Source: a virus (Duplodnaviria; Caudoviricetes). From it: 44,128 nucleotides of DNA. Both the position numbers and the translations under genes were made by a program. The notes beneath the pieces were generated by a model. That model saw only the letters and a list, made by a program, of their open reading frames with translations, did not search any database and had not been told where the DNA came from. Where the stretch lies: IMG/VR virus record IMGVR_UViG_3300025646_000087, positions 1 through 44,128 of that record. The stretch is one strand, 5' to 3'. Shown piece by piece: positions 7,935-24,666 of the stretch. The number at the start of each line of letters is the position of its first letter. The stretch's first letter is position 1.

Positions 7935-9394
7935 TAGTAATAAACCCTTCTTCTTGGTTCTCTTTCCTCGTCTTCGTAGTCGCTGTCTAGATAAACAAAG
8001 CCGCCTTCACGGAATCGCATCAGCGCTTGAGTCATAGTATCACATAAATCGTCGTTAGCTCCAAATGGAAATGCAGCGCATTCTTCAATCATATCTTCTG
8101 CAAACATCATTTTGGGTGCCCAAACCATACCAGATTCAAAAATAGGTGCGACCGAGTGCATACGTGTTGTTTTATCGTGACCACGCGTGGGTGAGTAGTT
8201 TACAACAGGAATACCCATTCGTCTTAGTTCTTGCGTCAAAGGAGTTCCTGAAGCTTTTGCCTCAATCAATACCATATCAGTATCCCAATAACGATATTCA
8301 CGCATCGCTATTTCTTTTAATTCTGGAAAGTCCCATCTACCTTTTTGACAATCTAATAAAATAATAGATTCTGGAGCATCTTCAGATGGTTTAAAAACTC
8401 CCCAAGTAGATATTGCCGAATAGTCAGCTGTTTCTCTTTTAGAAAATGCAGTATCGTAACTTTGCATAATATAACTAACTTTTGGTAACGTATCATGTTC
8501 CCATCTTTGCCACCAATCTCGTTTGATAATTGAGCCTTCTTCAGCAGTTGGTTGTTGCATCCATTGCGCATTCCATTTCATTCCAGGCAAAGATGCTTTA
8601 ACTTTTAACAATTCATCTTTTGACCAAAATTCGGGCCAGAGAGGATCATCGGATTTAGGCAATATAGCTGGAAACTCTATTACTTCCCATTGATCAGCCA
8701 ACGGTTCTTTTTGCGCTTCTAAAAGTTTGGCTGTTAAATCAATAGCTGACCAACGCGTCATCACTATTACGATAGATCCTTTTGGTTGTAAACGCTGTCT
8801 AGGACCAGAGGTGTACCAATCCCAAGCACTTTCTAACGCTGTTGGCGAAAGCGCATCTTGTTCAGAATGTGGATCGTCAATTATCAATAAATCCGCACCC
8901 CGTCCAGTAACCGCTCCTCCTACACCAGCCGCAAAATATTCTCCCCCTTTATTCGTCTCCCAACGACCAGCAGATTTGTTATCGGCTTGCAACTCTACTT
9001 CTGGAAATACTTGTTTGTATTCTTTTTGCGCCATCAAGTTCCTAACTTTCCTACCAAACCTAACCGCAAGTTCACCGGTATGCGTCGTCTGCATTATTTT
9101 CATTTTAGGATTGAGACCCATTATCCAAGATGGAAAATAGGTCGAAGCAAATTCGGATTTGGTATGACGAGGCGGCATGTTAACGATCAAGCGTTTGCAC
9201 TTACCCGTTGCTACGTCCTCTAGTTTCTGCGCAAATATTTTATGGTGACGGCCGCAAATAAATTCTGGCCACATTTGATTAATATATTTCAAAAAGGATT
9301 TTTGGCATTCGTCTTGAACGCTATAGCCTTCTTGTTTTTCTAGCAAAAGCAGAGCTTCTTTGAGCTCTGATTCTGTCAAATGTGACAGGTCCAT
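7934..9394 (-). CDS. terL: Terminase large subunit
   Basis: Walker A MPPRHTKS, Walker B LLIIDDP, motif III VMTRW, nuclease acidic motifs YDTA, ADYSA, IEAKASG, NDDLCD. Confidence 0.95.
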   Translation of the reverse strand: MDLSHLTESELKEALLLLEKQEGYSVQDECQKSFLKYINQMWPEFICGRHHKIFAQKLEDVATGKCKRLIVNMPPRHTKSEFASTYFPSWIMGLNPKMKIMQTTHTGELAVRFGRKVRNLMAQKEYKQVFPEVELQADNKSAGRWETNKGGEYFAAGVGGAVTGRGADLLIIDDPHSEQDALSPTALESAWDWYTSGPRQRLQPKGSIVIVMTRWSAIDLTAKLLEAQKEPLADQWEVIEFPAILPKSDDPLWPEFWSKDELLKVKASLPGMKWNAQWMQQPTAEEGSIIKRDWWQRWEHDTLPKVSYIMQSYDTAFSKRETADYSAISTWGVFKPSEDAPESIILLDCQKGRWDFPELKEIAMREYRYWDTDMVLIEAKASGTPLTQELRRMGIPVVNYSPTRGHDKTTRMHSVAPIFESGMVWAPKMMFAEDMIEECAAFPFGANDDLCDTMTQALMRFREGGFVYLDSDYEDEEREPRRRVYY

Positions 9395-9397
9395 ACT

Positions 9398-10342
9398 TTA
9401 AATATCGCGATAATTATCGTAAAGAGGCTTATCTACTGAGCCTCCACTTTTTTTATTTAATCTCTCTAGTTCTTCTAAAATAGCATCCAATTGTTCTTTG
9501 CTTGGATTGGTTAAAGTTTTTTGTTTATACGTAACTTTGTTGCCAAATTTTGATTGAGGTATGAATAGTTTTATTTTTTCTGTACCTTTATCAAAATCAA
9601 TTACTTCTTCAAAATAAGGTCTTGGTCTAAATTCGTCAAGTTTTTCAAAAGTACCAAATCTTTCTGCAATATCTTTATCTCTTAGCAAAGCTCTTGCTAG
9701 AGTATTATCTCCAGATCTAAAATCTTTTGGTAATTTATTTATATCAAGCAAGTCTTTATAAAAATCTATTTTATCGCTATCTAAAATTTCATACTTACCT
9801 TTTAAAGGAATGTTGTCATCTGCATATAAAGCAAGTCTTTCTTTAAATGGAATTGTTTGAATATAATCTAATATTTCTTCTCTAGTTACATTTTCAAAAT
9901 CAGCTGACGTTGGTTTTGCTAAATTTCTTTTACCAAGATTAAAATCTTCAATTGCTTTTGCGATATCTTCTTGACTTGCAAGTTGCTTGCCTTTTCCGGA
10001 TGCTTCTAAATAAAGTCTTTCAGCTTCGGCTGGATTTTTTATTTTTAAAGTCTTTCTAATCTGTTCAGCCTCAGCAATATCGCCTTTAGCTCCAGATCTG
10101 AATAAAGAAGCTATACGCTGATGTTTTAAAAGTTCTTGACCAAGTTCTTTTAATCCAAGTTGTAAGCCTTTACCAGGAGGACCACCCATCGCAATAAATG
10201 GATCGCCTCTCAGCGTTTCATCTGCTCTAGAAAAAAAATCAGATAAGTTTTTTAATACCGGATCAGTTATAGGTTTTTTTTGAAGCTCTAGTTCTTCTAA
10301 GCCTGTTATCGGTTCAATACGATATCTTTCTAGATCAGCCAT
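9398..10342 (-). CDS. Hypothetical protein (late operon)
   Basis: 314 aa ORF tightly packed; C-terminal KKSGGSVDKPLY. Confidence 0.65.
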   Translation of the reverse strand: MADLERYRIEPITGLEELELQKKPITDPVLKNLSDFFSRADETLRGDPFIAMGGPPGKGLQLGLKELGQELLKHQRIASLFRSGAKGDIAEAEQIRKTLKIKNPAEAERLYLEASGKGKQLASQEDIAKAIEDFNLGKRNLAKPTSADFENVTREEILDYIQTIPFKERLALYADDNIPLKGKYEILDSDKIDFYKDLLDINKLPKDFRSGDNTLARALLRDKDIAERFGTFEKLDEFRPRPYFEEVIDFDKGTEKIKLFIPQSKFGNKVTYKQKTLTNPSKEQLDAILEELERLNKKSGGSVDKPLYDNYRDI

Positions 10343-12896: not shown

Positions 12897-13118
12897 CTAA
12901 TACGGCAAACACTCATACTCCTTAGCCTGACATGCAGAGATAAATTTGACATCATCAAATCTAGGATTGCATGTTCGGAAGTAATCGCAGAGCTCACTTA
13001 CCAAGTCGCTTGAGTCAATCCACCTAGTCAGGTTTCTAGTATTAACCTCACTAGCATCTTCTCTCAGTTCAGAGATAATCTCGGCTATCGCTTTAAAGTC
13101 GCGTTTACTCATACTCAT
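12897..13118 (-). CDS. Small hypothetical early protein
   Basis: 73 aa; MSKRDF.AIA...NPRFD..KF..AC; RBS GAGGTG. Confidence 0.7.
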   Translation of the reverse strand: MSMSKRDFKAIAEIISELREDASEVNTRNLTRWIDSSDLVSELCDYFRTCNPRFDDVKFISACQAKEYECLPY

Positions 13119-13276
13119 ATCGCCACCTCTTTCTGAGCTTCGATCTCTTGGTCAAGCAGAGCCATTCCGTCCTGCCATACTCTATCAGCGTCGTCCATAC
13201 GATCGCATCTGATTAAGAAGATAGCCATTTCGATTTTGAACTTGGCTAACTCTAAGTTGGTTTTTTCCTTATCCAT
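13115..13276 (-). CDS. Small hypothetical protein (53 aa, not in ORF track)
   Basis: MDKEKTNLELAKFKIEMAIFLIRCDRMDDADRVWQDGMALLDQEIEAQKEVAI; RBS AAGGGGGTG; ATGA overlap with next gene. Confidence 0.7.
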   Translation of the reverse strand: MDKEKTNLELAKFKIEMAIFLIRCDRMDDADRVWQDGMALLDQEIEAQKEVAI

Positions 13277-13589
13277 TCTGCACCCCCTTAACCTTAGCAG
13301 TCAGAGTGACCTCGTAGCCCTCAGGCGAATAGATCGCGTCTAGTCTTTCCTCTAGCGTTTCAATCGCTGAGGTGTGGTCTTCGATCTGACTACTCATGTC
13401 GTCTAGATCGTAGCGATCTCTCACCCATTCTAGATCATCTACTGAGTTTTGAAGATCATCAACCTGAGAGCAGACACCCTCTAGATTGTATCGTCTAGCC
13501 AGTAGACTTTCGAGCACTCGCTCGACTTGCTCGTCAGTAGCTACGATCTGATTTAGACCAAGCCATTTTAATATCATCTGTTTAAACAT
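13269..13589 (-). CDS. Acidic coiled-coil hypothetical protein
   Basis: 106 aa, RBS AAGGGGGTG, overlaps neighbours. Confidence 0.7.
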   Translation of the reverse strand: MFKQMILKWLGLNQIVATDEQVERVLESLLARRYNLEGVCSQVDDLQNSVDDLEWVRDRYDLDDMSSQIEDHTSAIETLEERLDAIYSPEGYEVTLTAKVKGVQNG

Positions 13590-13842
13590 TTAGCACCCCC
13601 TTAATTGCTAACTCTGTTCTGTCTACGAATGACTGCAAAGTTTCAGATGGATTTGACGCCACGCTGACACGCTCCTCAGCGTTCCAAATGTGGCAAGTGA
13701 AAGTATTATCTCGATTAGACCAAAAAGCTCTATTGAAATTCAATACTTTGAATTCCTCACCTTGTCTGATCTGATCAGAAACAATATGACGACCGCTTAT
13801 TGCTGGGGGTTGTCTAAAACCAGCTCTTAAAATATCAAGCAT
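13582..13842 (-). CDS. Hypothetical early protein
   Basis: 86 aa, RBS AAGGAG, first gene after promoter. Confidence 0.7.
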   Translation of the reverse strand: MLDILRAGFRQPPAISGRHIVSDQIRQGEEFKVLNFNRAFWSNRDNTFTCHIWNAEERVSVASNPSETLQSFVDRTELAIKGVLNV

Positions 13843-13874
13843 TTGTAAACTCCTTTTGAAATGTTGATAAGAGA

Positions 13875-13905
13875 ATTATAAGCGATCTGTAGACAAATTG
13901 TCTAC
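13875..13905 (-). promoter_or_regulatory. Sigma70 promoter overlapped by a palindromic operator
   Basis: TAGACA-N18-TATAAT; GTAGACA-AAT-TGTCTAC at 13889-13905. Confidence 0.7.
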
Positions 13906-13988
13906 TGCTAATTTATTAAATAATTGGGGGCAGATCTTGGAGTTGCGATTGTCCAGATGACGACCTGATCGCTACCTGATCGCGATTT

Positions 13989-14032
<44 letters not shown>

Positions 14033-14083
14033 AATATATACCTGAATGTGTAAGGTGTGCTTTGTTATTTGATTGTAGAATGT

Positions 14084-14129
14084 TCCCGACTTCCCGACTT
14101 CCCGATTACCGACTGTTCCCGATTCCCGA
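14084..14129 (+). repeat. TCCCGA repeat cluster (5 copies)
   Basis: 14084, 14092, 14100, 14117, 14124. Confidence 0.85.
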
Positions 14130-14238
14130 TTTTTTCAAAAGTTTAGAAAGGAAAAGCCGGACAACAAAGGAAATGCTATTTTTTACCCCTTTATCCCCCC
14201 TTAAAGAATTGAAAGCGATTTTATCTGCTACTAGATGT

Positions 14239-14261
14239 AAAAAAGGGGGATTTCTCCCCCT
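14239..14261 (-). terminator. Rho-independent terminator
   Basis: AGGGGGA-GAAA-UCCCCCU plus U tract after 14285..14578. Confidence 0.85.
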
Positions 14262-14284
14262 ATCAACATTTAACGGAGTTTACG

Positions 14285-14578
14285 CTAAAAATTTAAAAGA
14301 ATATAACCGCCGTTATCAAGTGGTATTACTTGAGTATGAGCGTGTAAATCTTCCTCTGTTTTTATTCCTTCGTAGTTTTCCTTGATTTCTTCAAAGCTGT
14401 CATATTCTGACCATTCGCAACAAATGGCGATAGGATCAAATTCTATCTGTTCTCCCATTCCATCTTCTAATTCTTCGTAGAAATCAAAAAGAGCGTTTAA
14501 ACCATCATATGAAAAGTTTTCCGGTCTTAGCTTTCTAAAGGTATCTATAAATGTAGTTCTTGTAACTGTATCAAACAT
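14285..14578 (-). CDS. Highly acidic hypothetical early protein
   Basis: 97 aa; FSYDGL.ALFDF.EE...EFDPIAICCEWSEY. Confidence 0.75.
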   Translation of the reverse strand: MFDTVTRTTFIDTFRKLRPENFSYDGLNALFDFYEELEDGMGEQIEFDPIAICCEWSEYDSFEEIKENYEGIKTEEDLHAHTQVIPLDNGGYILLNF

Positions 14579-14579
14579 T

Positions 14580-14828
14580 TTAAACCCCCAATATTTTAGC
14601 TACTCTTTCAAGATCGCTAAGAGATAATTTATTGATAGCATCAGTATTAATAAGACTGCCATTTTGCCACGCTTGTAAGCCTTGACGATCTTTTAATTCA
14701 TTCCTAGCAAATATTGCTAGATCACTTTCACTTCCCGCTCTTTGTTTAACAAAGTTCTCAAGCGTTTTGTTATTCATCTCTAAGACTTTTTGCTTAGCTT
14801 GTTCTAAAGTTAGACTTTCCATTTTCAA
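14580..14828 (-). CDS. Hypothetical early protein
   Basis: 82 aa (or ATG 14822), RBS AAGGAG. Confidence 0.7.
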   Translation of the reverse strand: MKMESLTLEQAKQKVLEMNNKTLENFVKQRAGSESDLAIFARNELKDRQGLQAWQNGSLINTDAINKLSLSDLERVAKILGV

Positions 14829-14858
14829 CTCCTTTTAAATGTGAATTTCTATTCTTTT

Positions 14859-14935
14859 ATTATACTGACTTTTTTAAGATTGTATACATTTTGTAAAAAT
14901 AATTGTTGACTTTTTGTATACTTATAAAAGACAAT
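14859..14935. promoter_or_regulatory. Divergent promoter pair with two operator-like sites
   Basis: Minus TATACA-N16-TATAAT; plus TTGACT-N18-GACAAT; sites GTATACA-TTT-TGTAAAA (14882-14898) and GTTGACT-TTT-TGTATAC (14905-14921). Confidence 0.6.
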
Positions 14936-14960
14936 AAAACTTACATATATAGGAGTGTGT

Positions 14961-15254
14961 ATGGAATTAATAAAAACAGAGGTTGTAGACAGAAGTGCCT
15001 ACGATAAACCAAACATAGTTATCAAAGTGTATGAGCATATCCCCGATATCCCGAAACCAATTACTGATAAAGAGTGGGAAGATCATTTTGACAACTACGC
15101 TAATGGCGATTTTGTTCAAGGTAAATACTCTTACGAGGTTTACCGACAAGGGGAACTAGAGCCATTCTTTTCTGATAGCCATGACATATGGGATATCGAG
15201 AACGCCTTAAATTTAGCTTATCAAGACTTTGGCGATAAATGGGAGTGTGCATGA
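14961..15254 (+). CDS. Acidic hypothetical early protein
   Basis: ATG 14961 with RBS AGGAG; first gene of rightward early operon. Confidence 0.7.
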   Translation: MELIKTEVVDRSAYDKPNIVIKVYEHIPDIPKPITDKEWEDHFDNYANGDFVQGKYSYEVYRQGELEPFFSDSHDIWDIENALNLAYQDFGDKWECA

Positions 15255-15433
15255 AAACAAAAAAATTAAATAAAGCTGAACTTAATGTATTGGTTGCGGT
15301 TGTCGATCAAATAGCATCTTACAATTTTGCAATGAGAAACATACAAGAGTATGTGGAACACATGTTAACGCCAAAACAGATACATCTTTTACGCGAAAAA
15401 CTTGGATATCAATTAACAGAGATTTCAAGATGA
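15251..15433 (+). CDS. Hypothetical early protein
   Basis: ATG 15251, RBS GGAG, ATGA overlap. Confidence 0.65.
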   Translation: MKTKKLNKAELNVLVAVVDQIASYNFAMRNIQEYVEHMLTPKQIHLLREKLGYQLTEISR

Positions 15434-15648
15434 AACCGACATCAACTAACGGAGTGTGTTATATCGTTTCTGAAACTAGATCAAGGCGTGTATGGATTAA
15501 TACCGACTACCCGACTGAGAAATCCCGAAAGAAAGCAATAACCAAATTTTTTAACGAGAATGGGGAAGACACTTTTTCAACAAGTGCTACCTATTATTTA
15601 GCTAACCCAAATAAATTCAAACAAGGAGTGAATGATGATATTGATTAA
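15430..15648 (+). CDS. Hypothetical early protein
   Basis: 72 aa, ATGA overlap. Confidence 0.6.
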   Translation: MKPTSTNGVCYIVSETRSRRVWINTDYPTEKSRKKAITKFFNENGEDTFSTSATYYLANPNKFKQGVNDDID

Positions 15649-15889
15649 TTTTGGAATACAAGACGGCTCATGCGAATACAGAGAATGGGATTACGATACC
15701 AATTTCTCTAAAGCTGATTACGACAATGGCAAAGTTAAAGACTTTGATCTTTTACAAACTATGTATTGTGTAGATGAAGATGATCTTGATAGCAATGATA
15801 CATATTGGGCTGGAGATAAATTGGTATGGATTGAAAATGTTCAAGACATTGACCAATCTACCCTAGATATTCTAAGGAGATATGTCTAA
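15632..15889 (+). CDS. Acidic hypothetical early protein
   Basis: 85 aa, Asp-rich, RBS AAGGAG. Confidence 0.65.
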   Translation: MMILINFGIQDGSCEYREWDYDTNFSKADYDNGKVKDFDLLQTMYCVDEDDLDSNDTYWAGDKLVWIENVQDIDQSTLDILRRYV

Positions 15890-16416
15890 TGGACGCTATA
15901 GAAACAATTAAAACCAAAAGATTTATCGCTGATATTTATATTGATGATATGCCATATAGCCCTAGAGAAGATGACAATCTAGGAACGCTAATAGCATTTC
16001 ATTCTAGGTATGACTTATCAGATGACGATAGATGGACTAAAGAGGAATTGATAGAACATGTTGCAAAAGAAGATGTTTTATCTTTACCCGTTTATATGTA
16101 TGAACATTCGGGAGTAGCCCTATCTACTGAGCCATTTTCTTGTTCTTGGGATAGTGGGCAAGTAGGTTATATCTTTGTTTCTCATGCTGAGATTATTGAG
16201 TGCTACGGCAAACTAGATTTAGATACAGCTAAGAAGTGTTTAGAAACTGAGATAGACGAATACGGACTTTATCTTAACGGAGAGGTTTACGGCTATAAGG
16301 TATATCGCAAAGACGGAGAAGATGTTAATTCTTGTTGGGGATATATTGGCTACGATAATGCCGTATATGAAACTAATGTAGCACTAGCATGTGCTGAGGA
16401 GAACGAAGATGAGTAA
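15889..16416 (+). CDS. Acidic protein of a recurrent phage/mobile-element hypothetical family
   Basis: 175 aa; SPRE.DNLG, LPVYMYEHSG, WDSGQVGYI, LNGEVYGY, SCWGY motifs; RBS AAGGAG. Confidence 0.75.
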   Translation: MDAIETIKTKRFIADIYIDDMPYSPREDDNLGTLIAFHSRYDLSDDDRWTKEELIEHVAKEDVLSLPVYMYEHSGVALSTEPFSCSWDSGQVGYIFVSHAEIIECYGKLDLDTAKKCLETEIDEYGLYLNGEVYGYKVYRKDGEDVNSCWGYIGYDNAVYETNVALACAEENEDE

Positions 16417-16561
16417 TAAATGGAGATATGTTGTATGGGTTGGTGGTTGTGATGATTACTATACTGAATACGAGAGAGCCAAAGAGCATTATGATAAATG
16501 GATTGAGCAAGGATATGATGATGTGCATTTATTAAAACTAAAGGAGAACGAAGATGAGTAG
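16409..16561 (+). CDS. Small hypothetical protein (50 aa, not in ORF track)
   Basis: MSNKWRYVVWVGGCDDYYTEYERAKEHYDKWIEQGYDDVHLLKLKENEDE, starts in AGGAGAACGAAGATG repeat. Confidence 0.75.
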   Translation: MSNKWRYVVWVGGCDDYYTEYERAKEHYDKWIEQGYDDVHLLKLKENEDE

Positions 16562-16889
16562 CTATATCTCTGAAATTGTAGAAGAAGATGTTATTACTTG
16601 CGAATGTTGTAAAAAGAACTTTCTAACAAATGAAATTACTTTAGATGATTTCAATTTCGCGTGGGATAACTATACAACGATTGATTGTTGTTCTGATTGT
16701 GCAAGTAGCAATATGGAATGTTATGCGATTGATTTTGACAAAATGAATAATTCTCAAAAGTTATCCTTTGTTGCCGAAAGAAATGGATATGTTGAAGACG
16801 GAATAGGTTATTTAGATGACGGCAACGAATTCCGAGATGACAACGGACAAGCACTTTTTATTGATAACGAGGAGAACGAAGATGTCTGA
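16554..16889 (+). CDS. Acidic CxxC zinc-binding hypothetical protein
   Basis: CECC...CSDC; 111 aa. Confidence 0.7.
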   Translation: MSSYISEIVEEDVITCECCKKNFLTNEITLDDFNFAWDNYTTIDCCSDCASSNMECYAIDFDKMNNSQKLSFVAERNGYVEDGIGYLDDGNEFRDDNGQALFIDNEENEDV

Positions 16890-17001
16890 GAAAGAGATTA
16901 TAGAAGAATTAGTATTAATGATTACTTGCGATTATTGGGATTTAATTCCTGAACATCATCAAAAAATTATTGAACAACGATTACAAAAACTAGGTTTATA
17001 A
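16882..17001 (+). CDS. Small hypothetical protein (39 aa)
   Basis: Start moved to ATG 16882 within RBS repeat. Confidence 0.65.
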   Translation: MSEKEIIEELVLMITCDYWDLIPEHHQKIIEQRLQKLGL

Positions 17002-17012
17002 GGAGAACGAAG

Positions 17013-17216
17013 ATGAGCGTAATAACTAAACCAAAAATAAAAACTAAATCATGGACGGCAGTAATAACTTACTCCGTACTTGATATGGGCAGAGAGTGCG
17101 ATACTCAAGAAGAATATATTGAGATGGTAAAAGATCATTTCAGAGAAGAACATAATATCGAATTAACCGATAACGAGATAACCGATATTGAATTTGACGA
17201 GGTGGAATATGAGTAA
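17013..17216 (+). CDS. Acidic hypothetical protein
   Basis: 67 aa, RBS repeat. Confidence 0.7.
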   Translation: MSVITKPKIKTKSWTAVITYSVLDMGRECDTQEEYIEMVKDHFREEHNIELTDNEITDIEFDEVEYE

Positions 17217-17640
17217 GAAACCATACCTTAACTACGGCAATCTAGAATGGCATTTTGAACAAGACGATAAAACGCCACCTAGACAATTAGCTAATATCCC
17301 TTTGGGAGAACTAGACGAGCCAATTACTACAGGCAGAGAATTACTTGCCTATCTATCCAAATGTCTTAACAAAGACAGATATGCCTTTAGGAACAGAGGT
17401 AGAGGTAGTAGAAAACATGCTACAGGATTTATGAGAGATCTAACGATTGATCAAGCAGAAAGAGTAGCTATCTACTTTCAAGAAAAAGAAAGTGTTATTA
17501 AGAAAGAGATCTTTCAACGAAACCGGTGGAAAGACAGATACCAACTTAATGATGCTATCAGAGAACTATCAAGAAGACTTTACGAACATGCTCAAAAGTA
17601 TGGTGATGATGTTTTAATTTTACAAAAAAAGGAGAAGTGA
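17209..17640 (+). CDS. Basic hypothetical protein
   Basis: ATG 17209 with RBS GAGGTG; RNRGRGSRK motif. Confidence 0.7.
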   Translation: MSKKPYLNYGNLEWHFEQDDKTPPRQLANIPLGELDEPITTGRELLAYLSKCLNKDRYAFRNRGRGSRKHATGFMRDLTIDQAERVAIYFQEKESVIKKEIFQRNRWKDRYQLNDAIRELSRRLYEHAQKYGDDVLILQKKEK

Positions 17641-17840
17641 AAATGAAAGTATATAAAGTATATACAAAATGGGTTGGCTATTCTGAAATAATAGTTGATG
17701 CAGAAGATGAACAAGAAGCTAAAGATTTTGTAGCTATGGGAAGTTATGACCCTAGTGAAGAATTGCAAACAGGGAATGGTCTTGATTATGGCTATGAAGA
17801 TGAACAAGTTTATAAAATAGAGGAGATACCAAATGATTGA
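17637..17840 (+). CDS. Acidic hypothetical protein
   Basis: Start GTG 17637 or ATG 17643, RBS AAGGAG; VDAEDEQEA motif. Confidence 0.7.
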   Translation: MKMKVYKVYTKWVGYSEIIVDAEDEQEAKDFVAMGSYDPSEELQTGNGLDYGYEDEQVYKIEEIPND

Positions 17841-18003
17841 GAGAGTAACGAGTGCCTTACTAGATATGTATGACATACAAAATGCTTTAGATGAGAAAAC
17901 CAAAAACTTACCTAAAGACAATGACGGAACGGATATAACTATTGGTGATTGTATTGCTGATGTTATTAGCACTTTAAGGAGAATACAAAATGAAACTAAA
18001 TGA
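17833..18003 (+). CDS. Small hypothetical protein (56 aa, not in ORF track)
   Basis: MIERVTSALLDMYDIQNALDEKTKNLPKDNDGTDITIGDCIADVISTLRRIQNETK, RBS GAGGAG. Confidence 0.7.
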   Translation: MIERVTSALLDMYDIQNALDEKTKNLPKDNDGTDITIGDCIADVISTLRRIQNETK

Positions 18004-18175
18004 ATACCAATTAGTTAAGAAACTAGGCGTAACTCAATTCAAAGAGTTAGCTGATCTTGTTGACGATCTTGGGTGGGACTATCAAAGAATGACTACAAGT
18101 GGCAGAGCAACATACAAGAAACTTTGCAATACACTTGGTTGGGAATTTGAATGGAATGATGAGGAGTTAGGCTAA
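17990..18175 (+). CDS. Hypothetical protein
   Basis: 61 aa, RBS AAGGAG. Confidence 0.7.
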   Translation: MKLNEYQLVKKLGVTQFKELADLVDDLGWDYQRMTTSGRATYKKLCNTLGWEFEWNDEELG

Positions 18176-18405
18176 TGAAAGAATGGCAACAAGATAATTG
18201 GACTGAATTAACAACAGAAGATAATCAAGTCTTAGATGTTAATTTATGGACTGACGATACTACAGGTAAGCAATACATTTCTTTCTATCCTACAACTTGG
18301 AATGACGAGGGCTACTATACAGCAGACGGAAATTACCGAGAGGGATACAGAGAAACAGACAGCAATCCTATAGCAACTTATAGAGTAATTTTAGAGGAGA
18401 AATAA
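18175..18405 (+). CDS. Acidic hypothetical protein
   Basis: 76 aa, RBS GAGGAG, TAATG overlap. Confidence 0.7.
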   Translation: MKEWQQDNWTELTTEDNQVLDVNLWTDDTTGKQYISFYPTTWNDEGYYTADGNYREGYRETDSNPIATYRVILEEK

Positions 18406-18407
18406 AA

Positions 18408-18596
18408 ATGAAAGTAAAAGATCTAATTAAAGAACTACAGCAACAAGACCAAGATAAAACTGTAAATATCTTTATTGCCAAAGAATTTGGAGAAGACAAT
18501 GTAGAAGATATTTATAGCGAAGTTATCTTAGATGTTATTGATCAAGATGATACTGTAGAAATTTATTGTTTAAAGGAGAGTGCAAATGTCAATTAG
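18408..18596 (+). CDS. Acidic hypothetical protein
   Basis: MKVKDLIKELQ..DQD N-terminus common in small phage proteins; RBS GAGGAG. Confidence 0.7.
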   Translation: MKVKDLIKELQQQDQDKTVNIFIAKEFGEDNVEDIYSEVILDVIDQDDTVEIYCLKESANVN

Positions 18597-18828
18597 AAAA
18601 ACAAACAAAGACAGATCAAACGACATATATCGTCTAATGTTAGTCTTTTTACAATACTATGGTTTTGAAAAGTCATACGCTGATGAAGAAAACTGGTTTA
18701 TAAGAGATTTGCTATGCGACTTAAAACACTTTTGTGATGAATACGCTATTGATTTTTATGGCGAGTTAATTAGGGCTGAAAAGTTTTACGACCTAGAGGT
18801 GCAAGAAGAAAAAAAGGAGAGTGCTTAA
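18586..18828 (+). CDS. Hypothetical protein
   Basis: ATG 18586, RBS AAGGAG; DLLCDLKHFCD. Confidence 0.7.
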   Translation: MSIRKTNKDRSNDIYRLMLVFLQYYGFEKSYADEENWFIRDLLCDLKHFCDEYAIDFYGELIRAEKFYDLEVQEEKKESA

Positions 18829-19172
18829 TGGATATAGGCAATAGATGTGTATGTTGTGGCGAAGATACTTCTTTTGGTAGTGGCAACTTCGTCAATCGTA
18901 TTCCTGCAGATGCAGATTACGAGAGTTTAGACGAGCAAGGTAATGTTATCTTTGCTGACGGAGAATACAGGGACGGATATGCTTGTTCTGATTGTATGGC
19001 TATACCTTGTTATAGGTGTGATAAACCTATACCTTTAGACGAAGATCTATCACCTTGTTGTGTTTATCCTGAAGACCATATCAATCATTTTGATAATGAA
19101 TTTTCAGATGGTGCAGATAGAGTGCATTTTGAATGTCTAACTAAAGAAGAAAGACAATATTTAAATGTTTGA
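18828..19172 (+). CDS. Double zinc-finger-like hypothetical protein
   Basis: CVCC, CSDC, CYRC, HFEC. Confidence 0.7.
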   Translation: MDIGNRCVCCGEDTSFGSGNFVNRIPADADYESLDEQGNVIFADGEYRDGYACSDCMAIPCYRCDKPIPLDEDLSPCCVYPEDHINHFDNEFSDGADRVHFECLTKEERQYLNV

Positions 19173-19230
19173 ATTTCTAGCTATAACTATATTAATCATT
19201 TTATTTCTAATAGATAAGGATAACAGCTAA
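19165..19230 (+). CDS. Putative 21-aa hydrophobic micropeptide
   Basis: MFEFLAITILIILFLIDKDNS; exactly fills the gap, overlapping both neighbours. Confidence 0.45.
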   Translation: MFEFLAITILIILFLIDKDNS

Positions 19231-19472
19231 TGCTATCAAGAAAAGACGAAAGAAACGAAGACGGCTACAGAGATTGTAATCTCTGTGGCCATTCTTTTAA
19301 TCTATATGCAGATGACGAGGGACTACTCAATCTAGAGGAAATCCTAGAGTGTTCTGAGCAACAACAACAACAATGGCAATCAAACAATCCAAGAATAGAT
19401 TTAACAAGCTATTTCTGTAGTGATTGTGCCGAACATACCATTCAACAAATAGAGGAGAAAATAAATGTATAG
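19230..19472 (+). CDS. CxxC zinc-binding hypothetical protein
   Basis: CNLC...CSDC. Confidence 0.7.
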   Translation: MLSRKDERNEDGYRDCNLCGHSFNLYADDEGLLNLEEILECSEQQQQQWQSNNPRIDLTSYFCSDCAEHTIQQIEEKINV

Positions 19473-19656
19473 AGCAACAATAGAGTTAGAGTTTAATCAG
19501 AAACCTGATGAAGCAGATGTAATCAATTACCTAAATGAATTAATTGATAACGACTGTTTAGGATTTGAGATTAAACAAATTAACAATCCTAATAGCGTAG
19601 GTTATTACGGATACAATCAAAAAACGGATAACTACTATCCAAATTTAGACGACTAA
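19465..19656 (+). CDS. Hypothetical protein
   Basis: 63 aa, RBS GAGGAG. Confidence 0.65.
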   Translation: MYRATIELEFNQKPDEADVINYLNELIDNDCLGFEIKQINNPNSVGYYGYNQKTDNYYPNLDD

Positions 19657-19667
19657 GGAGAAGTTAA

Positions 19668-19859
19668 ATGACTGAACATACCGACAAAGTAGAACAAGCA
19701 AGATTTAGAATATTCAAAGAGCAAACAAACTACCCTACGATTGAGGGTAGAGCCGAATGGGATTACTTAATCAAACGCTATCCAAATGGCAAGATCGTCA
19801 AAGTCTTTGACGACAAACGAAAGAAAAATGAAATCGTAGCAGAGGGAGAGGAAGTTTAA
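19668..19859 (+). CDS. Hypothetical protein
   Basis: 63 aa, RBS AAGGAG. Confidence 0.65.
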   Translation: MTEHTDKVEQARFRIFKEQTNYPTIEGRAEWDYLIKRYPNGKIVKVFDDKRKKNEIVAEGEEV

Positions 19860-20491
19860 TCTTCCTCTCTATTAACTCCTACCTTATCCTTTTTCTTTTT
19901 TCCAGAATCTAAAATATCGTCAACGCTAATCATACTTCCCGACTTGTCTTCAATAGCTGTTCCCGACTGTTGATGTTCAATAACTTTGTTCCCGATTAAT
20001 TGCTGTAGCCGTTTTTCGACTTCCTCCCGACTCATCTGGTCAATCTTTCCATGCAATACTTCCCGACGATCAACAATTAGCCCGCCAAGTTTCAACAACA
20101 AATTCTGAGCGTTGATGGCCGCCGTAAAGTTTTCCTTCTCCCACGCCGCATCTCTGAGTTTATACAAGTCCTCGACAGCTCTATCGTGATTCAATTCAAA
20201 TTTCTTTTTAGCCTCACTCATCAATCTTTCATACTCCCGACGAACATGCGCATATCTCCCGCCTGGTCTCATCAATCTCCCGACGACTACCGGATTCTTA
20301 TAGCCTGCCTTTTTCGCGGCCTCCGCGAAAGTCAGTCTAGGATCGTTGACTGCATTCCAGACTAATAACCTTTGTCTCTTGGTTAACTTCTTCTCGTCGT
20401 CATTCATATATTCAATCGGCATCTCATCTACAGGTTCAAGCGTCGGCTCTACCTTGATGGTTGGCCTTATCCTCATATCGTATGCTGGCAT
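19856..20491 (-). CDS. terS: Terminase small subunit-like HTH protein
   Basis: LTKRQR...TFAEAAKKAGY N-terminal HTH; LRDAA...FTAAINA...LGGLIVDRREV; IDQMSREEV. Confidence 0.7.
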   Translation of the reverse strand: MPAYDMRIRPTIKVEPTLEPVDEMPIEYMNDDEKKLTKRQRLLVWNAVNDPRLTFAEAAKKAGYKNPVVVGRLMRPGGRYAHVRREYERLMSEAKKKFELNHDRAVEDLYKLRDAAWEKENFTAAINAQNLLLKLGGLIVDRREVLHGKIDQMSREEVEKRLQQLIGNKVIEHQQSGTAIEDKSGSMISVDDILDSGKKKKDKVGVNREED

Positions 20492-20618
20492 GTTCTATCT
20501 TAGTTATCCTCGCGTCAAATTCTTGTAAAAGTTTAGCTAATATCGGTTGTTCTAACAACTCTATCAAATCATCTGGAAGATGCTCCCGACACTTATCGGT
20601 TAGTCTTAATTTGTTCAT
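20436..20618 (-). CDS. Hypothetical protein
   Basis: 60 aa upstream of and overlapping terS. Confidence 0.5.
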   Translation of the reverse strand: MNKLRLTDKCREHLPDDLIELLEQPILAKLLQEFDARITKIEHASIRYEDKANHQGRADA

Positions 20619-20652
20619 ACTGAATAAATTTTATCACACCTTCTACAAATAC

Positions 20653-21004
20653 TTTTGTCAAAGTCTCTGACAAAACTCTGCCAAAACTCTTAACCCCTCG
20701 TAAAGTACTGATATAATGTATTATTTATATATAATAATATATATATATTTACCTTATTTATTAGTTTTGTCAGGTTTTTCTTTACCCCCCCTTTACTTTT
20801 ACGATTATGAGGGATTTTAGGCATATTCTAAGGGGGTACTCTGACAAAATGACAAAACTGCCAAAAGTGCGCCAGTACTGCATTTGCGCCATTTTGACAA
20901 AACTGACAAAATGACAAAACTACCCCGTTTTTGCCAAAACTCTGCCTAAAATACGACTAATTGCGGGTTTGAAGGGGGTCTTTTGTCAAAAGTTTATGAC
21001 AAAA
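20653..21004. repeat. Iteron-like array around AT-rich core (putative replication origin)
   Basis: 13 copies of TG(A/C)CAAAA (10 forward, 3 reverse) flanking an almost pure AT stretch at ~20711-20763. Confidence 0.75.
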
Positions 21005-21274
21005 CTATTTGTCTTTTTCAGGGGTAAAATCAGGGATAAATTCTATCTCTTTTGTTAGACCAAAAGAATTTTCTAAGATCTCATCTATTTTAAGAATACC
21101 TTGTTCGATTGTTGTTGAATAATCGAAGACTCTTGAGGTTCCGAAGGTAAAAAAAAGTAAGGCGACAAATTCCGCATCTGCGCCGCGTTCGATAAGTTCC
21201 GAGAATAAAGATTCAAGTCTACGTTCAGCTTCTTGTACGGAAGGTTTCTTCTTTTTGATTTCCAAGACTTTCAT
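21005..21274 (-). CDS. Hypothetical protein, possibly leaderless
   Basis: 89 aa; no SD, TAAACT -10-like box 6 nt before ATG. Confidence 0.6.
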   Translation of the reverse strand: MKVLEIKKKKPSVQEAERRLESLFSELIERGADAEFVALLFFTFGTSRVFDYSTTIEQGILKIDEILENSFGLTKEIEFIPDFTPEKDK

Positions 21275-21298
21275 ACTTGGAGTTTAGCTGAGAATGGT

Positions 21299-21393
21299 TA
21301 AAAAGGAAAGTGAGGTGTTTTGCCGCAGACTACACCTCAGAGTCCGGAGTGTGGGGTAAATGAAAGTATAAGGAACCCCAAAGCGACGCGTCT
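21299..21393 (-). ncRNA. Candidate ~95-nt small RNA
   Basis: Extended -10 TGtTAAAAT (21400-21408); hairpin UGGGGU/ACCCCA with 17-nt pyrimidine loop; terminal hairpin UGAGGUGU/ACACCUCA plus U-rich tail. Confidence 0.6.
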
Positions 21394-21433
21394 CTTATTA
21401 TTTTAACAGGCCAGACGACTTGCCTGCTCGCGA

Positions 21434-21628
21434 TTATCTTCTGGGCGCGTAGTTCTTAAAGAACCCGTCGGTTACCCAGTCAAACCAAAAATCTCTACAA
21501 CTGCATTCGTCGTAGCGTTTATCAATTTTTTGCATACGATAGTAGAACTCTCCTACATCTTCGCAATCTTGAATGATACCTTCGGCATCTGCCTCCATAT
21601 CAATTAATAAATCAGATATTCTTCCCAT
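21434..21628 (-). CDS. Hypothetical protein
   Basis: 64 aa, adjacent to upstream stop. Confidence 0.65.
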   Translation of the reverse strand: MGRISDLLIDMEADAEGIIQDCEDVGEFYYRMQKIDKRYDECSCRDFWFDWVTDGFFKNYAPRR

Positions 21629-21841
21629 TTAGTGTACCCCCATTTCTCTGATAAGTTTTGCTGATACCTCTTCTATTAAACAAGTAAGTCTAGAAGTATC
21701 GTTGGATATCTGCCAAGTGTAGATATCGGTTTTGGTTATTTCTATTAGACCTGCTTTGAAGTATTGTTCCATCAGCGCAAAGATAGAGTCTCGTAAGACA
21801 TCTCTTGTTTGGTCTATTTGTTCAGATATTGTTTCGTTCAT
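21629..21841 (-). CDS. Hypothetical protein
   Basis: 70 aa, RBS GGAGGAG. Confidence 0.7.
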   Translation of the reverse strand: MNETISEQIDQTRDVLRDSIFALMEQYFKAGLIEITKTDIYTWQISNDTSRLTCLIEEVSAKLIREMGVH

Positions 21842-21870
21842 ATTAGCTCCTCCGAAAATTATCTACACTT

Positions 21871-21915
21871 AGTATAGCAAAAGTAGTTTACAGCGCAACT
21901 ATTATTTGATACATT
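21871..21915. promoter_or_regulatory. Overlapping divergent promoters
   Basis: Minus TTGCGC-N16-TATACT with TGn extension; plus TTTACA-N17-TACATT with TGn extension. Confidence 0.6.
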
Positions 21916-21939
21916 TAGTAATTATATATAGGAGCATAT

Positions 21940-22122
21940 ATGAACGAAGTAAAAAATTTAATTGAAGGCGTCCTTGCCTTACAAAGTCCAACCGCACCCG
22001 TCGGCAGAATCGACATGCAAAAAGACCTAGACTCTATGAAAAAGATCAACGCGTTTGTTGAGTACATCTATACTCATCATCCCGCGTTGTTTGAGAAAGC
22101 CTACAAGGAAGCCAGCAAGTGA
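21940..22122 (+). CDS. Hypothetical protein, first gene of helicase operon
   Basis: 60 aa, RBS AGGAG. Confidence 0.7.
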   Translation: MNEVKNLIEGVLALQSPTAPVGRIDMQKDLDSMKKINAFVEYIYTHHPALFEKAYKEASK

Positions 22123-22364
22123 GATTAAGTAAACAAGATATTATTCAATACTTTAAAAACAGAGGATGTAACTTTGAATCCGAAGGTATAGGTAAATACA
22201 AAGTTTTTAAAAAATATATTTTTATAGAAGAACTTGACGTAGGAGAAGTTGTATTGTACGACTTTGACGGATCTATTTCCGGAGAAGCTATAGAAGGATA
22301 TTGTCCTAAAAAATTCAACTGGACCAAAGCATACATGCAAGATTGTATTGAGAACTTACTATGA
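22119..22364 (+). CDS. Hypothetical protein
   Basis: 81 aa, GTGA overlap. Confidence 0.65.
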   Translation: MRLSKQDIIQYFKNRGCNFESEGIGKYKVFKKYIFIEELDVGEVVLYDFDGSISGEAIEGYCPKKFNWTKAYMQDCIENLL

Positions 22365-22609
22365 GATTCTTTTTTAACTACAACGGCAAAGCAGTTGAGT
22401 GGGAATGGAAAGATAAAGACAAACAATTTTACAGAACTTATATCCCTAAAAAATCTGAATTGATTATTAAAGGGATAGACGGGGCCGAAAGGCAAATTAT
22501 TAAAGATACTCTATGGGAGAACATACAAAATGAAATTAGAGAAATCAAAGATAGGAAAAATCAGCAAGCCAAAGAAAGTCGTGCTAAGAAAAAAGCAAAT
22601 CAATCTTGA
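22361..22609 (+). CDS. Hypothetical basic protein
   Basis: 82 aa, ATGA overlap. Confidence 0.65.
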   Translation: MRFFFNYNGKAVEWEWKDKDKQFYRTYIPKKSELIIKGIDGAERQIIKDTLWENIQNEIREIKDRKNQQAKESRAKKKANQS

Positions 22610-22766
22610 GCAAGCTATTAAAGAAACTGAAAAGAAAATAGAACAGCAAATAGCTGAAAGAGAAAAAGAAATAGTGCGCGTTAAAGAGCCTATGACGTTT
22701 TCGCAAAATGTATTGGCTATTGTTGTTTTAGGAACAATCGTGCTGATCGCTTGGTTGAATGGGTAA
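22530..22766 (+). CDS. Small coiled-coil protein with C-terminal transmembrane helix
   Basis: VLAIVVLGTIVLIAWL; start uncertain. Confidence 0.55.
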   Translation: MKLEKSKIGKISKPKKVVLRKKQINLEQAIKETEKKIEQQIAEREKEIVRVKEPMTFSQNVLAIVVLGTIVLIAWLNG

Positions 22767-22857
22767 CTTCATATTGCCATTTCTTATAACTATAGCTAGT
22801 GCAGCAATCTTTGCTGTCGTTGGTTTGTATTTAATAGAAAAATTTCTAAGCAAATGA
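22759..22857 (+). CDS. Putative 32-aa membrane peptide (not in ORF track)
   Basis: MGNFILPFLITIASAAIFAVVGLYLIEKFLSK; overlaps both neighbours. Confidence 0.5.
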   Translation: MGNFILPFLITIASAAIFAVVGLYLIEKFLSK

Positions 22858-23009
22858 ATTATACAGAGGAAGAAAAAGAAACCTTAGATGCAATTAAAAT
22901 TATCAGAGCCTATATAAAAAATAACTTAGTGTTTGTAGGCGAGGTAAAGCTAGACGATATGTTGTTTAACTTGCAAGAAGAAATAATAGGTAAGGCGGAG
23001 TTTAGATGA
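22854..23009 (+). CDS. Small hypothetical protein (51 aa, not in ORF track)
   Basis: MNYTEEEKETLDAIKIIRAYIKNNLVFVGEVKLDDMLFNLQEEIIGKAEFR; ATGA overlap. Confidence 0.55.
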   Translation: MNYTEEEKETLDAIKIIRAYIKNNLVFVGEVKLDDMLFNLQEEIIGKAEFR

Positions 23010-23055
23010 TTAGTTATTTATGGGGTTGGTTTGACCCCGAGCAACTACCAAGATA

Positions 23056-24666
23056 ATGCCGCTTAGAGACTATCAACAAGAAGCCTTAGATGCGTTAGAA
23101 AATTACGTATCTTTAGAAGAGGGCAATCCTTTAGTTGTTATGCCGACAGGTTCAGGCAAGTCGCATGTTATTGCAGAATTTGTACTGCATATGAAACAAC
23201 AAAAAGATGCTAAGGCTTTGATCGTTAGTCATGTTAAAGAAATTATTTTGCAGAACTATGAGAAACTCAACAATGTTTGGGAAGGAGATATTGGTTTGTA
23301 TGGAGCTAGCTTTAAGAGCAGAGATACAGACAACGATATTATATATGCGCAGCTGCAATCGGTTTGGAACAAGGTAGGCAAGCTCCCTTCATTTGATCTA
23401 TTAGTAGTAGATGAAGCTCATCTTGTTCCAAAAGACGGCGAGGGAATGTATCGTTCTCTCGTCGTTGCTTTAAAAGAAAAAAATCCAGATCTTTGTGTAG
23501 TAGGTTTTACAGCTACTCCCTACCGTTTAAATTCCGGTATGTTAACCGAAGGTGAAGGCGCTATCTTCGACGATATCGCTATTGACTTTAGTAGTGGTGA
23601 TAATTTATTACGCTTGATTGATGATGGTTACTTAGCACCTCTAGTAACGAAATGTATGGATACTCAATACGACGTAGAAAGCGTCGGTATCAGAGGTGGA
23701 GAATTTATTCGTTCTGATCTACAAGAAAAAATGAACGACGAAGGCAAAACAATTAAAGCCATTCAAGAAACAATTAAAAAGGGACAGAACAGAAAGCAAT
23801 GGTTAATCTTTTGCGCTGGCGTCAATCATGCAGAGATGGTCTGCAGCATACTTCGTCTCTACGACATCAGCGCAAAGGTTGTAACTGGAGAGACTAGCCA
23901 AACCGAGAGAGACCAATTAATAGCAGATTACAAAGCTGGCAAAATAAAAGCGTTGGTTAATTGCGATGTGTTAACAACTGGATTTGATGCGCCTAATACA
24001 GATTTGATTGTTATGTTGCGCCCCACTCAAAGTCCAGGACTTTACGTGCAGATGATGGGTAGAGGTATGCGTCCATCAGACGGCAAGAAAGATTGTTTGG
24101 TTTTAGATTTTGCTAGAAATATTGAGCGTCATGGTCCAATCAATCAGATCAAACCAAATGCTAAAGGACAGCGCAGAAAGCCAGGACAGATGCTAGTTAA
24201 GTCTTGCAAAGAATGTCAGTCGTATGTACCGAAAGCGGCTAATACTTGTCCGGATTGTGGTTACCAATTTCCTATGCGTAAATTGCAACTTGATTTGGTT
24301 GCATCTCAGCTTGAAATCATATCTAAAAATCAAAAAAAAGAACGCTACGATTTAAAAGTTATAGATATGTGGGTGGGTCATCATCTTGCAAAAGGCAAGA
24401 ATGTGCCTGTATTAAAAGTCAGTTACAAGACTCCCAATAAAATTATTAACGAATTTATTTGTTTTGAACATACCGGTTACGCTAGACAGAAAGCAGTAGC
24501 GTGGTGGAATCATATGGTTTCTGGCGAAAGTTTGCGTCGCTCCCCTCCGATTACAATAGATGAGGCTCTCTTTCGCCAGACTGAAATTAATAAACCTAAT
24601 CTGATAAAGGTTGACTTTACAGGTAGGTATCCAAACGTGGTCAATTATTTGTATGCCGATCGGTGA
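23056..24666 (+). CDS. Superfamily 2 DEAH helicase (SSL2/RadD-like) with zinc ribbon
   Basis: LRDYQ, PTGSGKS, DEAH, TATP, LTTGFDAP, QMMGRGMR, CKEC...CPDC. Confidence 0.92.
   Translation: MPLRDYQQEALDALENYVSLEEGNPLVVMPTGSGKSHVIAEFVLHMKQQKDAKALIVSHVKEIILQNYEKLNNVWEGDIGLYGASFKSRDTDNDIIYAQLQSVWNKVGKLPSFDLLVVDEAHLVPKDGEGMYRSLVVALKEKNPDLCVVGFTATPYRLNSGMLTEGEGAIFDDIAIDFSSGDNLLRLIDDGYLAPLVTKCMDTQYDVESVGIRGGEFIRSDLQEKMNDEGKTIKAIQETIKKGQNRKQWLIFCAGVNHAEMVCSILRLYDISAKVVTGETSQTERDQLIADYKAGKIKALVNCDVLTTGFDAPNTDLIVMLRPTQSPGLYVQMMGRGMRPSDGKKDCLVLDFARNIERHGPINQIKPNAKGQRRKPGQMLVKSCKECQSYVPKAANTCPDCGYQFPMRKLQLDLVASQLEIISKNQKKERYDLKVIDMWVGHHLAKGKNVPVLKVSYKTPNKIINEFICFEHTGYARQKAVAWWNHMVSGESLRRSPPITIDEALFRQTEINKPNLIKVDFTGRYPNVVNYLYADR

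Follow-up and report, generated by a model that had tools for sequence, protein, structure and literature searches.

Trans-acting bacterial small RNAs such as RNAIII and RsaE use loop seeds to pair with messages at ribosome-binding sites, and type III antitoxins of the ToxI-like kind consist of tandem pseudoknot repeats located upstream of a ToxN, CptN or TenpN toxin. Class 1 xrRNAs of flaviviruses, as described in the available parts of PMC8374639, PMC7749634 and PMC5760640, form a 15–16-nt ring and block bacterial RNase J1. Our literature search found no xrRNA described for phages. Here we analysed a 44,128-nt stretch of viral DNA (referred to below as the window) and found that the minus strand of 21433-21299, judged by covariation among relatives, is a member of an apparently undescribed family of phage non-coding RNAs with a covarying knot. 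Our leading reading, which we hold tentatively, is that the knotted RNA is durable and, in the lineages bearing an additional hairpin, acts as a generic clamp on translation starts and not on a few chosen genes.

By its sequence, the window belongs to a group of uncultured marine phages with packaging genes related to those of HTVC023P-type pelagiphages. The 52 proteins that were scanned include a portal protein, terminase large subunit (TerL), capsid, helicase, exonuclease VIII, Sak4, primase and RusA; TerL is 59–63% identical to the TerL proteins of HTVC023P, HTVC027P and two related phages, and the sequencing runs that hold the stretch carry a marine label. BLASTN of window positions 19000-24000 against 50,697 phage records gave no match, and a search for the host, in which the TerS of the window was compared with genome contigs, found no relative. 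As in HTVC023P-type phages, about 10 kb separates terS and terL and includes a divergent block of small early genes (window 12897-19859). The replication module includes Sak4 and exonuclease VIII, with no DNA polymerase among the 52 proteins scanned, unlike the HTVC023P-type layout that is otherwise shared. The RNA element lies within a 160-nt gap between genes 21628 and 21274, both on the minus strand, with repeats of TGACAAAA and terS downstream:

21877..21898, minus strand: −35-like TTGCGC (21898-21893) with an extended TG, upstream of gene 21841; recognized by eye and unlisted by the consensus scan
21871..21876, minus strand: −10 TATACT upstream of gene 21841; this TGCTATACT motif also stands ahead of leaderless genes in relatives
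21629..21841, minus strand: 70-aa gene with no PHROG or Pfam family
21434..21628, minus strand: 64-aa gene whose stop codon abuts the RNA element, according to the gene calls
21281..21286, minus strand: −10-like TAAACT upstream of gene 21274, with a spacing of exactly 6 nt to the ATG and no SD; read from the sequence and 26 homologues
21005..21274, minus strand: 89-aa conserved phage protein, function unassigned, with homologues in relatives
20830..21004, no strand assigned: TGACAAAA / TTTTGTCA repeats, putatively origin- or pac-like
19856..20491, minus strand: terminase small subunit (TerS), 32–34% identical to the annotated TerS of HTVC023P and HTVC027P

The product of gene 21274 has no family in Pfam, PHROGs or the ESM Atlas. 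The repeats at 20830-21004 are direct and inverted copies of TGACAAAA beside an AT-rich run, and are kept in L014, L017 and L029. In these three loci and in L030, L031, L059 and L062, the interval between the RNA and terS is a cargo slot in which genes come and go; its contents are hypothetical genes and methylase-like genes, the latter called by eye from the translations.

Relatives were gathered as 130 viral loci with a relative of TerS, of which the best 80 were kept, and a covariance model was built from 30 aligned sequences. The initial annotation had named conservation in related contigs as a check on its proposal. The model found the element in 59 of the best 80 of the 130 loci (57 complete copies and 2 truncated at a contig end), with 23 of the 59 positive loci being part of the training set. 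In all 21 loci with no match, the start of terS lies at most 2,038 bases from the start of the contig. The element lies 0.8–3.5 kb upstream of terS (the most distant in L059), so these contigs begin too near terS for the lack of a match to indicate absence. One strong copy was present in each of seven long sequences, the window and six contigs of 43–53 kb, whereas the model found no element in HTVC023P (whole), DSL-LC04 (50 of 61.5 kb) or HTVC027P (10 kb). Of the stretches picked up by pattern scans, 65 and 37 were viral and 12 came from metagenomes; 2 of the 65 (L092 and L106) are without the knot. A single match of the 5′-module pattern in a bacterial MAG was dismissed as chance, because it sits in a coding gene and is without the knot. 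A descriptor of the knot identified 36 distinct bodies, all at the homologous site; it missed the units of L011–L013, which the covariance model found. At these loci the knotted unit is in tandem, and at all others it is single. The knotted body measures approximately 75 nt in the window and 45 nt in minimal forms.

With cmscan against Rfam, which the initial annotation had also suggested, the whole window gave no hit at the gathering threshold, the element gave no match at E values up to 10, and the element in six relatives gave none at E values up to 5. A literature search found no description of the RNA. The catalogue of 10,000 RNA candidates built from IMG/VR (PMC10690425) may include it as an uncharacterized entry; three of its six text supplementary files held no match.

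Read 5′ to 3′, the element consists of a palindromic hexamer, hairpin P0, an A-rich linker with YGC(W), the 5′ strand of P1, a variable insert, stem P3 and the 3′ strand of P1, followed by 3–5 nt, the 3′ strand of the pseudoknot, AC and a tail. Its parts in the window are as follows:

21428..21433, minus strand: self-complementary hexamer UCGCGA; at this position all 30 of 30 aligned relatives have a palindromic hexamer, in four different versions
21406..21427, minus strand: hairpin P0, GCAGGC (21427-21422) with GCCUGU (21411-21406); 100% of cells paired, with double-sided changes in 2 of 6 pairs and G-U allowed
21388..21405, minus strand: A-rich linker with conserved YGC(W) at its end, including TAAAAT at 21405-21400; from alignment columns
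21383..21387, minus strand: P1 5′ strand GUCGC, partner of 21326-21322; double-sided changes in 3 of 5 pairs, with 96.7% of cells paired
21353..21379, minus strand: optional hairpin P2 with a GGGGU/ACCCC stem, missing from 13 of 36 distinct bodies
21345..21352, minus strand: joining strand ACACUCCG with a conserved, anti-SD-like UCC; UCC follows CAU in 24 of 27 hairpins, with a gap of 7–11 nt in 23
21328..21344, minus strand: stem P3, GACU (21344-21341) with AGUC (21331-21328); double-sided changes in all 3 of the 3 pairs that were counted
21322..21326, minus strand: P1 3′ strand GCGGC, from the descriptor and covariation
21312..21318, minus strand: pseudoknot 3′ strand ACACCUC, then the conserved AC; double-sided changes in 6 of 7 pairs, with 99.5% of cells paired
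21299..21309, minus strand: U-rich tail; in 24 of 36 bodies, at least 5 of the 8 nt that follow AC are U

The loop of P3 is 9 nt long and carries the 5′ strand of the pseudoknot, GAGGUGU (21338-21332). Covariation was scored on a MAFFT alignment that was not fitted to the structure, over 630 cells (21 pairs in 30 sequences). Of these cells, 97.9% were paired and 14 of the 21 pairs changed on both sides, a result reached by 0 of 500 shuffles; the same sequences supplied the structure, and their relatedness inflates the shuffle test, yet the changes are spread over all four helices. Slid controls were 33–48% paired. The conserved fold, by this measure, is a 5′ hairpin and an A-rich linker leading into a junction closed by a 7-bp pseudoknot. 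G-U pairs on the minus strand occur in every helix, which makes the minus strand the structured one, in agreement with the strand that the initial annotation had proposed for a structured RNA.

The details of that proposal fared less well. The initial annotation had drawn two hairpins within 21299..21408, and folding of this 110-nt stretch was no better than that of shuffled sequences (z = −1.17; 29 of 200); including 29 additional upstream bases gave z = −1.86. ViennaRNA cannot form the knot and gives a nested fold, from which the apparent second hairpin arises; by covariation it is a pseudoknot. A structured RNA does lie where the initial annotation had placed it, but it extends further, with the conserved hairpin P0 lying upstream, at 21427-21406, and overlapping the −10 proposed there. 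The length of the P0 loop varies even among close relatives. In L035 (1714-1760) an upstream ORF crosses P0 and stops in the linker, so that P0 lies within coding sequence in that clade. The palindromic hexamer 5′ of P0 (21433-21428 in the window) is a possible site of RNA dimerization or a DNA site. We rejected a sigma-54 promoter as a reading of the 5′ module because the spacing differs by 1–2 nt among close relatives, and a conserved ORF on the opposite strand, which in some loci but not in others meets a stop 2–3 codons after AUG. HDV-like and pistol ribozymes and the SAM-II/V, fluoride, guanidine-III and preQ1 riboswitches were rejected because the helix order differs or core letters are missing, and Rfam agrees.

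The insert between P1 and P3 is 29–38 nt long in 23 of the 36 distinct bodies and 7–11 nt in 13. The hairpin whose loop the initial annotation had matched to early starts is this optional insert, P2. Its loop in the window is 17 nt long (21374-21358) and contains UCCUU and UUUCAU, with CAU at 21362-21360. YCAU (anti-AUG) at the 3′ side of a U-rich loop, followed by UCC (anti-SD), has been retained by 24 of the 27 distinct hairpin inserts, which share descent and do not amount to 24 independent events, while the stems differ widely. The claim that the RNA exposes letters complementary to translation starts is thus upheld, for hairpin-bearing lineages only. The other three hairpin inserts have a UCCGUAA-type loop (two) or an unreliably parsed loop (L142). 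In L011-type loci there is a second knotted unit, which bears two further hairpins that are both U-rich and CAU-ended. On a TerS tree made with FastTree, the root of which is weak, CAU hairpins occur in the clade of the window and in the L029–L084 group, a further clade has short inserts that contain CAU, and one supported clade (0.92) is without CAU. Because 13 of the 36 bodies have no hairpin insert, antisense pairing is not the sole role of the family; these bodies, together with the three hairpins lacking CAU, indicate that the conserved core has a role for which an antisense loop is not required. The U-rich loops could also find their partner in the A-rich linker, or serve as a protein-binding site, instead of pairing with mRNA starts.

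In a rival explanation, the knot would be a roadblock to nucleases in cis, or a transcript boundary, that protects its own message (either downstream cargo or the 3′ end of the upstream operon), with the loops being secondary. We consider this explanation possible but doubtful. All type-A lineages share the knot and no other part, and in many relatives SD-led cargo genes (methylase-like or encoding a 70-aa hypothetical protein) begin just past it. The distance between the pseudoknot strands is 13 nt in 19 of the 36 bodies, 15 nt in 2 and 16 nt in 15, and this spacing and the topology resemble those of class 1 xrRNAs as given in the available parts of PMC8374639. In the window and the minimal forms, however, the next gene appears to be leaderless and to have a −10 of its own, which leaves little to protect downstream. 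A hexamer of the TA..CT, TACAAT, TAAAAT or GATAAA type lies near the 6-nt spacing in the 26 listed homologues of gene 21274, two of which are mis-started, and from these sequences gene 21274 is likely leaderless with a promoter of its own; the RNA is therefore likely not its 5′ UTR. This gene starts with Met-Lys in the clades with a CAU RNA and with Met-Ser or Met-Thr in the clade without CAU, which represents one phylogenetic split. Retention of YCAU and UCC and triplication of the loop in L011-type loci would also go unexplained by a roadblock. In addition, the 5′ end does not pair with the junction: across the 36 bodies, we found no xrRNA-type Watson-Crick pairing of the 5′ flank, where YGCW faces a junction strand of U, C, A, UU or CU without covariation.

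It is unlikely that the RNA is a decoy, the knot or CAU loop of which titrates a host nuclease, toxin or RNA chaperone as an anti-defence RNA. Phage mimics of type III antitoxin pseudoknots and of anticodon nucleases exist, and the compact pseudoknot, its tandem duplication in L011–L013 and a CAU loop on a G-C-rich stem, loosely like the anticodon arm of the initiator tRNA, would suit such a function. Exchangeable decoys would also be expected to be replaced, as in five loci (L091, L093, L101, L117 and L127; approximately 1189-1310 in L093 and L117) where a type B body is swapped in behind the same 5′ module. The type B body has a covarying 7-bp closing helix, two inner hairpins, a conserved AAGUAACG loop and a P3-like hairpin, and from these features it may be a rearranged relative of the knot. 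However, the loops of the CAU hairpins are 9–19 nt long with CAU at the 3′ side, unlike a 7-nt anticodon loop, no antitoxin or tRNA of Rfam matched, and a decoy does not predict UCC at SD spacing.

The initial annotation had proposed a stand-alone sRNA with an extended −10 promoter and a U-rich end, in which two seeds had evolved against the early genes 17643, 18408, 14961 and 15251. The sites on these genes are:

17641..17653, plus strand: start of early gene 17643, complementary to the P2 loop over 13 nt, AAATGAAAGTATA; letter for letter, strain-specific
18406..18416, plus strand: start of early gene 18408, complementary to the P2 loop over 11 nt, AAATGAAAGTA; letter for letter
14952..14959, plus strand: GGAGTGTG in the SD region of the first rightward early gene; letter for letter
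15242..15249, plus strand: GGAGTGTG in the SD region of the second rightward early gene; letter for letter

All of the matches that had been listed are present, including ATGAAAGT at the start of gene 21274, and there are further copies: a third GGAGTGTG inside a gene at 15451, and ATGAAAGT at 29595 on the plus strand and 34780 on the minus strand, away from called starts. With CAU of the window loop anchored on AUG, the 13- and 11-nt matches stand out among 63 ATG starts, called by a heuristic gene caller that favours SD-bearing starts. Loop shuffles anchored on CAU put the best match at P = 0.005 and the top two at P = 0.001 (0.008 and 0.004 with UUCAU fixed), so that in the genome of the window these matches exceed the generic start-codon likeness against which the initial annotation had proposed a permutation test. 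The four named genes also rank top among 25 early starts by duplex energy, and the close relative L224 retains GGAGTGTG at its first early gene.

The same evidence is not repeated in relatives, and we regard an sRNA directed at these genes as very unlikely. In five other cognate pairs of loop and genome the best anchored match is 7–9 nt (P = 0.34–0.80; 0 of 5 significant), and the window loop likewise finds at best 7–9 nt in six other genomes. Loop variants in the clade of the window change letters inside the 13-mer. In L224, where the loop seed is unchanged, the homologue of gene 17643 (54% identity) has a different third codon, leaving a 7-nt match. Starts with a GGAG SD followed by TGTG number 2 of 33 in the window and 0–1 of 23–41 in six other genomes. 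Nine further, non-identical loci with a homologue of gene 17643 and a readable start have other start contexts; none of them holds the element, so they are uninformative on compensation, and L224, which is informative, is negative. Across the cognate pairs, the homologues of gene 17643 and L224, we found no conserved specific phage target with compensatory change, and we set aside the idea of two seeds aimed at four named genes.

The proposed transcript signals are also present in the window and little conserved. The extended −10, TGtTAAAAT, was confirmed at 21408-21400 on the minus strand, where it overlaps P0, but TG-n-TAnnnT occurs in only 4 of 30 aligned relatives and any TAnnnT in 7 of 30. 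The U-rich tail is real, in the window and in most bodies, but a terminator is not apparent: the consensus scan called neither a promoter nor a terminator-like site over the element. A promoter in the linker is possible, since an A/T-rich hexamer there always lies approximately 7 nt before a purine. TTGCGC and TGn-TATACT upstream of gene 21841 are likely to form a host-sigma70 promoter, the transcript of which would run into the RNA element. In contigs from RNA libraries (8 RNA runs of the 12 listed), the element has a depth of approximately 2–6, the same as genome-wide; these data are contigs, blind to strand, ends and level, and may include DNA.

Early and late genes differ in their translation starts. 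Early genes have an SD in 20 of 25 cases and AUG-GC in 0 of 25, whereas late genes have an SD in 7 of 25 and AUG-GC in 12 of 25. Genomes without a CAU loop (G007, G017 and G020) show this bias too, which is therefore no sign of selection by the RNA. The preference of cognate loops for early over late starts is weak (AUC 0.71, 0.72, 0.62, 0.36, 0.71 and 0.73, against shuffled means of 0.56–0.60); between 11 and 192 of 200 shuffles were at or above the observed value, and one cognate loop points in the opposite direction. Because the long seeds are not conserved and the early preference is weak, the conserved signal is a generic anti-AUG and anti-SD in order and spacing. Early genes also share repeated SD-start blocks (window 16398-17013 and 17629-18815; G006 8500-9930; G007 20840-21700), with GGAGAACGAAGATG occurring three times in the window and different repeats being used in G006 and G007. 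Related strains have contigs that are joined across such repeated SD-start junctions. These patterns suggest gene exchange at the blocks, which may explain the two GGAGTGTG starts.

The weakest explanation, a pRNA- or primer-like RNA for packaging or replication that acts with the adjacent repeats and TerS and oligomerizes through the palindromic hexamer, would fit the fixed position 0.8–3.5 kb upstream of terS, the single strong copy per genome and the hexamer found in 30 of 30 relatives, but HTVC023P has homologous TerS and TerL without a match, cargo genes intervene freely and Rfam gave no match, and we give it very little credence.

Returning to the generic clamp, we propose a mechanism in which the RNA would either share a transcript with genes 21841-21628 or have a weak promoter of its own in the linker, and would then be trimmed to the knot. 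With 13–16 nt between its pseudoknot strands, the knot would shield the RNA from nucleases as the ring of an xrRNA does. The SD of an mRNA (GGA) would pair with UCC of the joining strand at the foot of P2, the spacer of the message would run along the closed P2 stem, needing no sequence match, and AUG-AA would pair with CAU at the 3′ side of the P2 loop. Such pairing would favour SD-led AUG-AA messages, of the host and of early phage genes, over late genes, which often have AUG-GC and a weak SD; the generic seeds are short, at 5–7 nt plus 3–4 nt, and the 13-nt match to gene 17643 would be a strain-specific extension of a generic seed. A more specific and rather improbable form of this proposal is that the RNA is an xrRNA-like chassis with exchangeable loops that mimic the anti-SD and the initiator anticodon, giving a spacer-independent clamp from which leaderless and AUG-GC late messages would escape. 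Loops that clamp ribosome-binding sites regardless of spacer would offer an RNA route to host shut-off and to early-to-late switching, and a spacer-independent clamp, if true, would be a compact scaffold for stable antisense RNAs in bacteria.

Several known systems share features with this RNA. Like type III antitoxins, it is a short pseudoknot with occasional tandem units; unlike them, it is a single unit except in L011-type loci, has no Rfam match and adjoins no toxin family identified by Pfam or PHROGs. As far as the available parts of the sources describe them, the small RNAs discussed here differ from it in the following respects. The CreT RNA toxin of Acinetobacter (PMC10097628) is also a small RNA tied to translation-initiation signals, but carries a sense SD and AUG, whereas the phage RNA carries their complements on its structured strand and the mini-ORF on the sense strand is not conserved. 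The phage sRNAs OOP, sar, PreS and VpdS (PMC12197685) are likewise intergenic non-coding RNAs proposed to tune phage or host translation; they are cis-antisense or Hfq-dependent with named targets, whereas the present RNA has a covarying knot and no conserved specific target. It resembles the 6C sRNA (PMC6486639) in having pyrimidine-rich loops complementary to translation-start regions, several per molecule, and differs from 6C-type sRNAs in being encoded by a phage and pseudoknotted, in holding anti-AUG and anti-SD at the SD-AUG spacing by a stem, and in its lack of an Rfam match. Unlike loop-seeded sRNAs in general, it has no conserved promoter, terminator or target.

The likeness to class 1 xrRNAs, again as the available parts of their descriptions present them, lies in the architecture. 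In both, the order of helices around the junction is P1, P2 and P3, with P2 limited here to the hairpin-bearing bodies, and the P3 loop forms a pseudoknot, of 7 bp here, with the strand just 3′ of P1; the 13–16 nt between the pseudoknot strands compare with the 15–16-nt ring, although a ring needs a three-dimensional structure. The phage RNA differs in that its 5′ flank does not pair with the junction strand of 1–2 nt, in having a dispensable P2, an extra 5′ hairpin and an A-rich linker, and in its location in a dsDNA phage instead of the 3′ UTR of an RNA virus. We therefore do not file it as an xrRNA, although by analogy it possibly works like one; should it prove to stop RNase J, it would represent a naturally occurring xrRNA outside the RNA viruses of eukaryotes.
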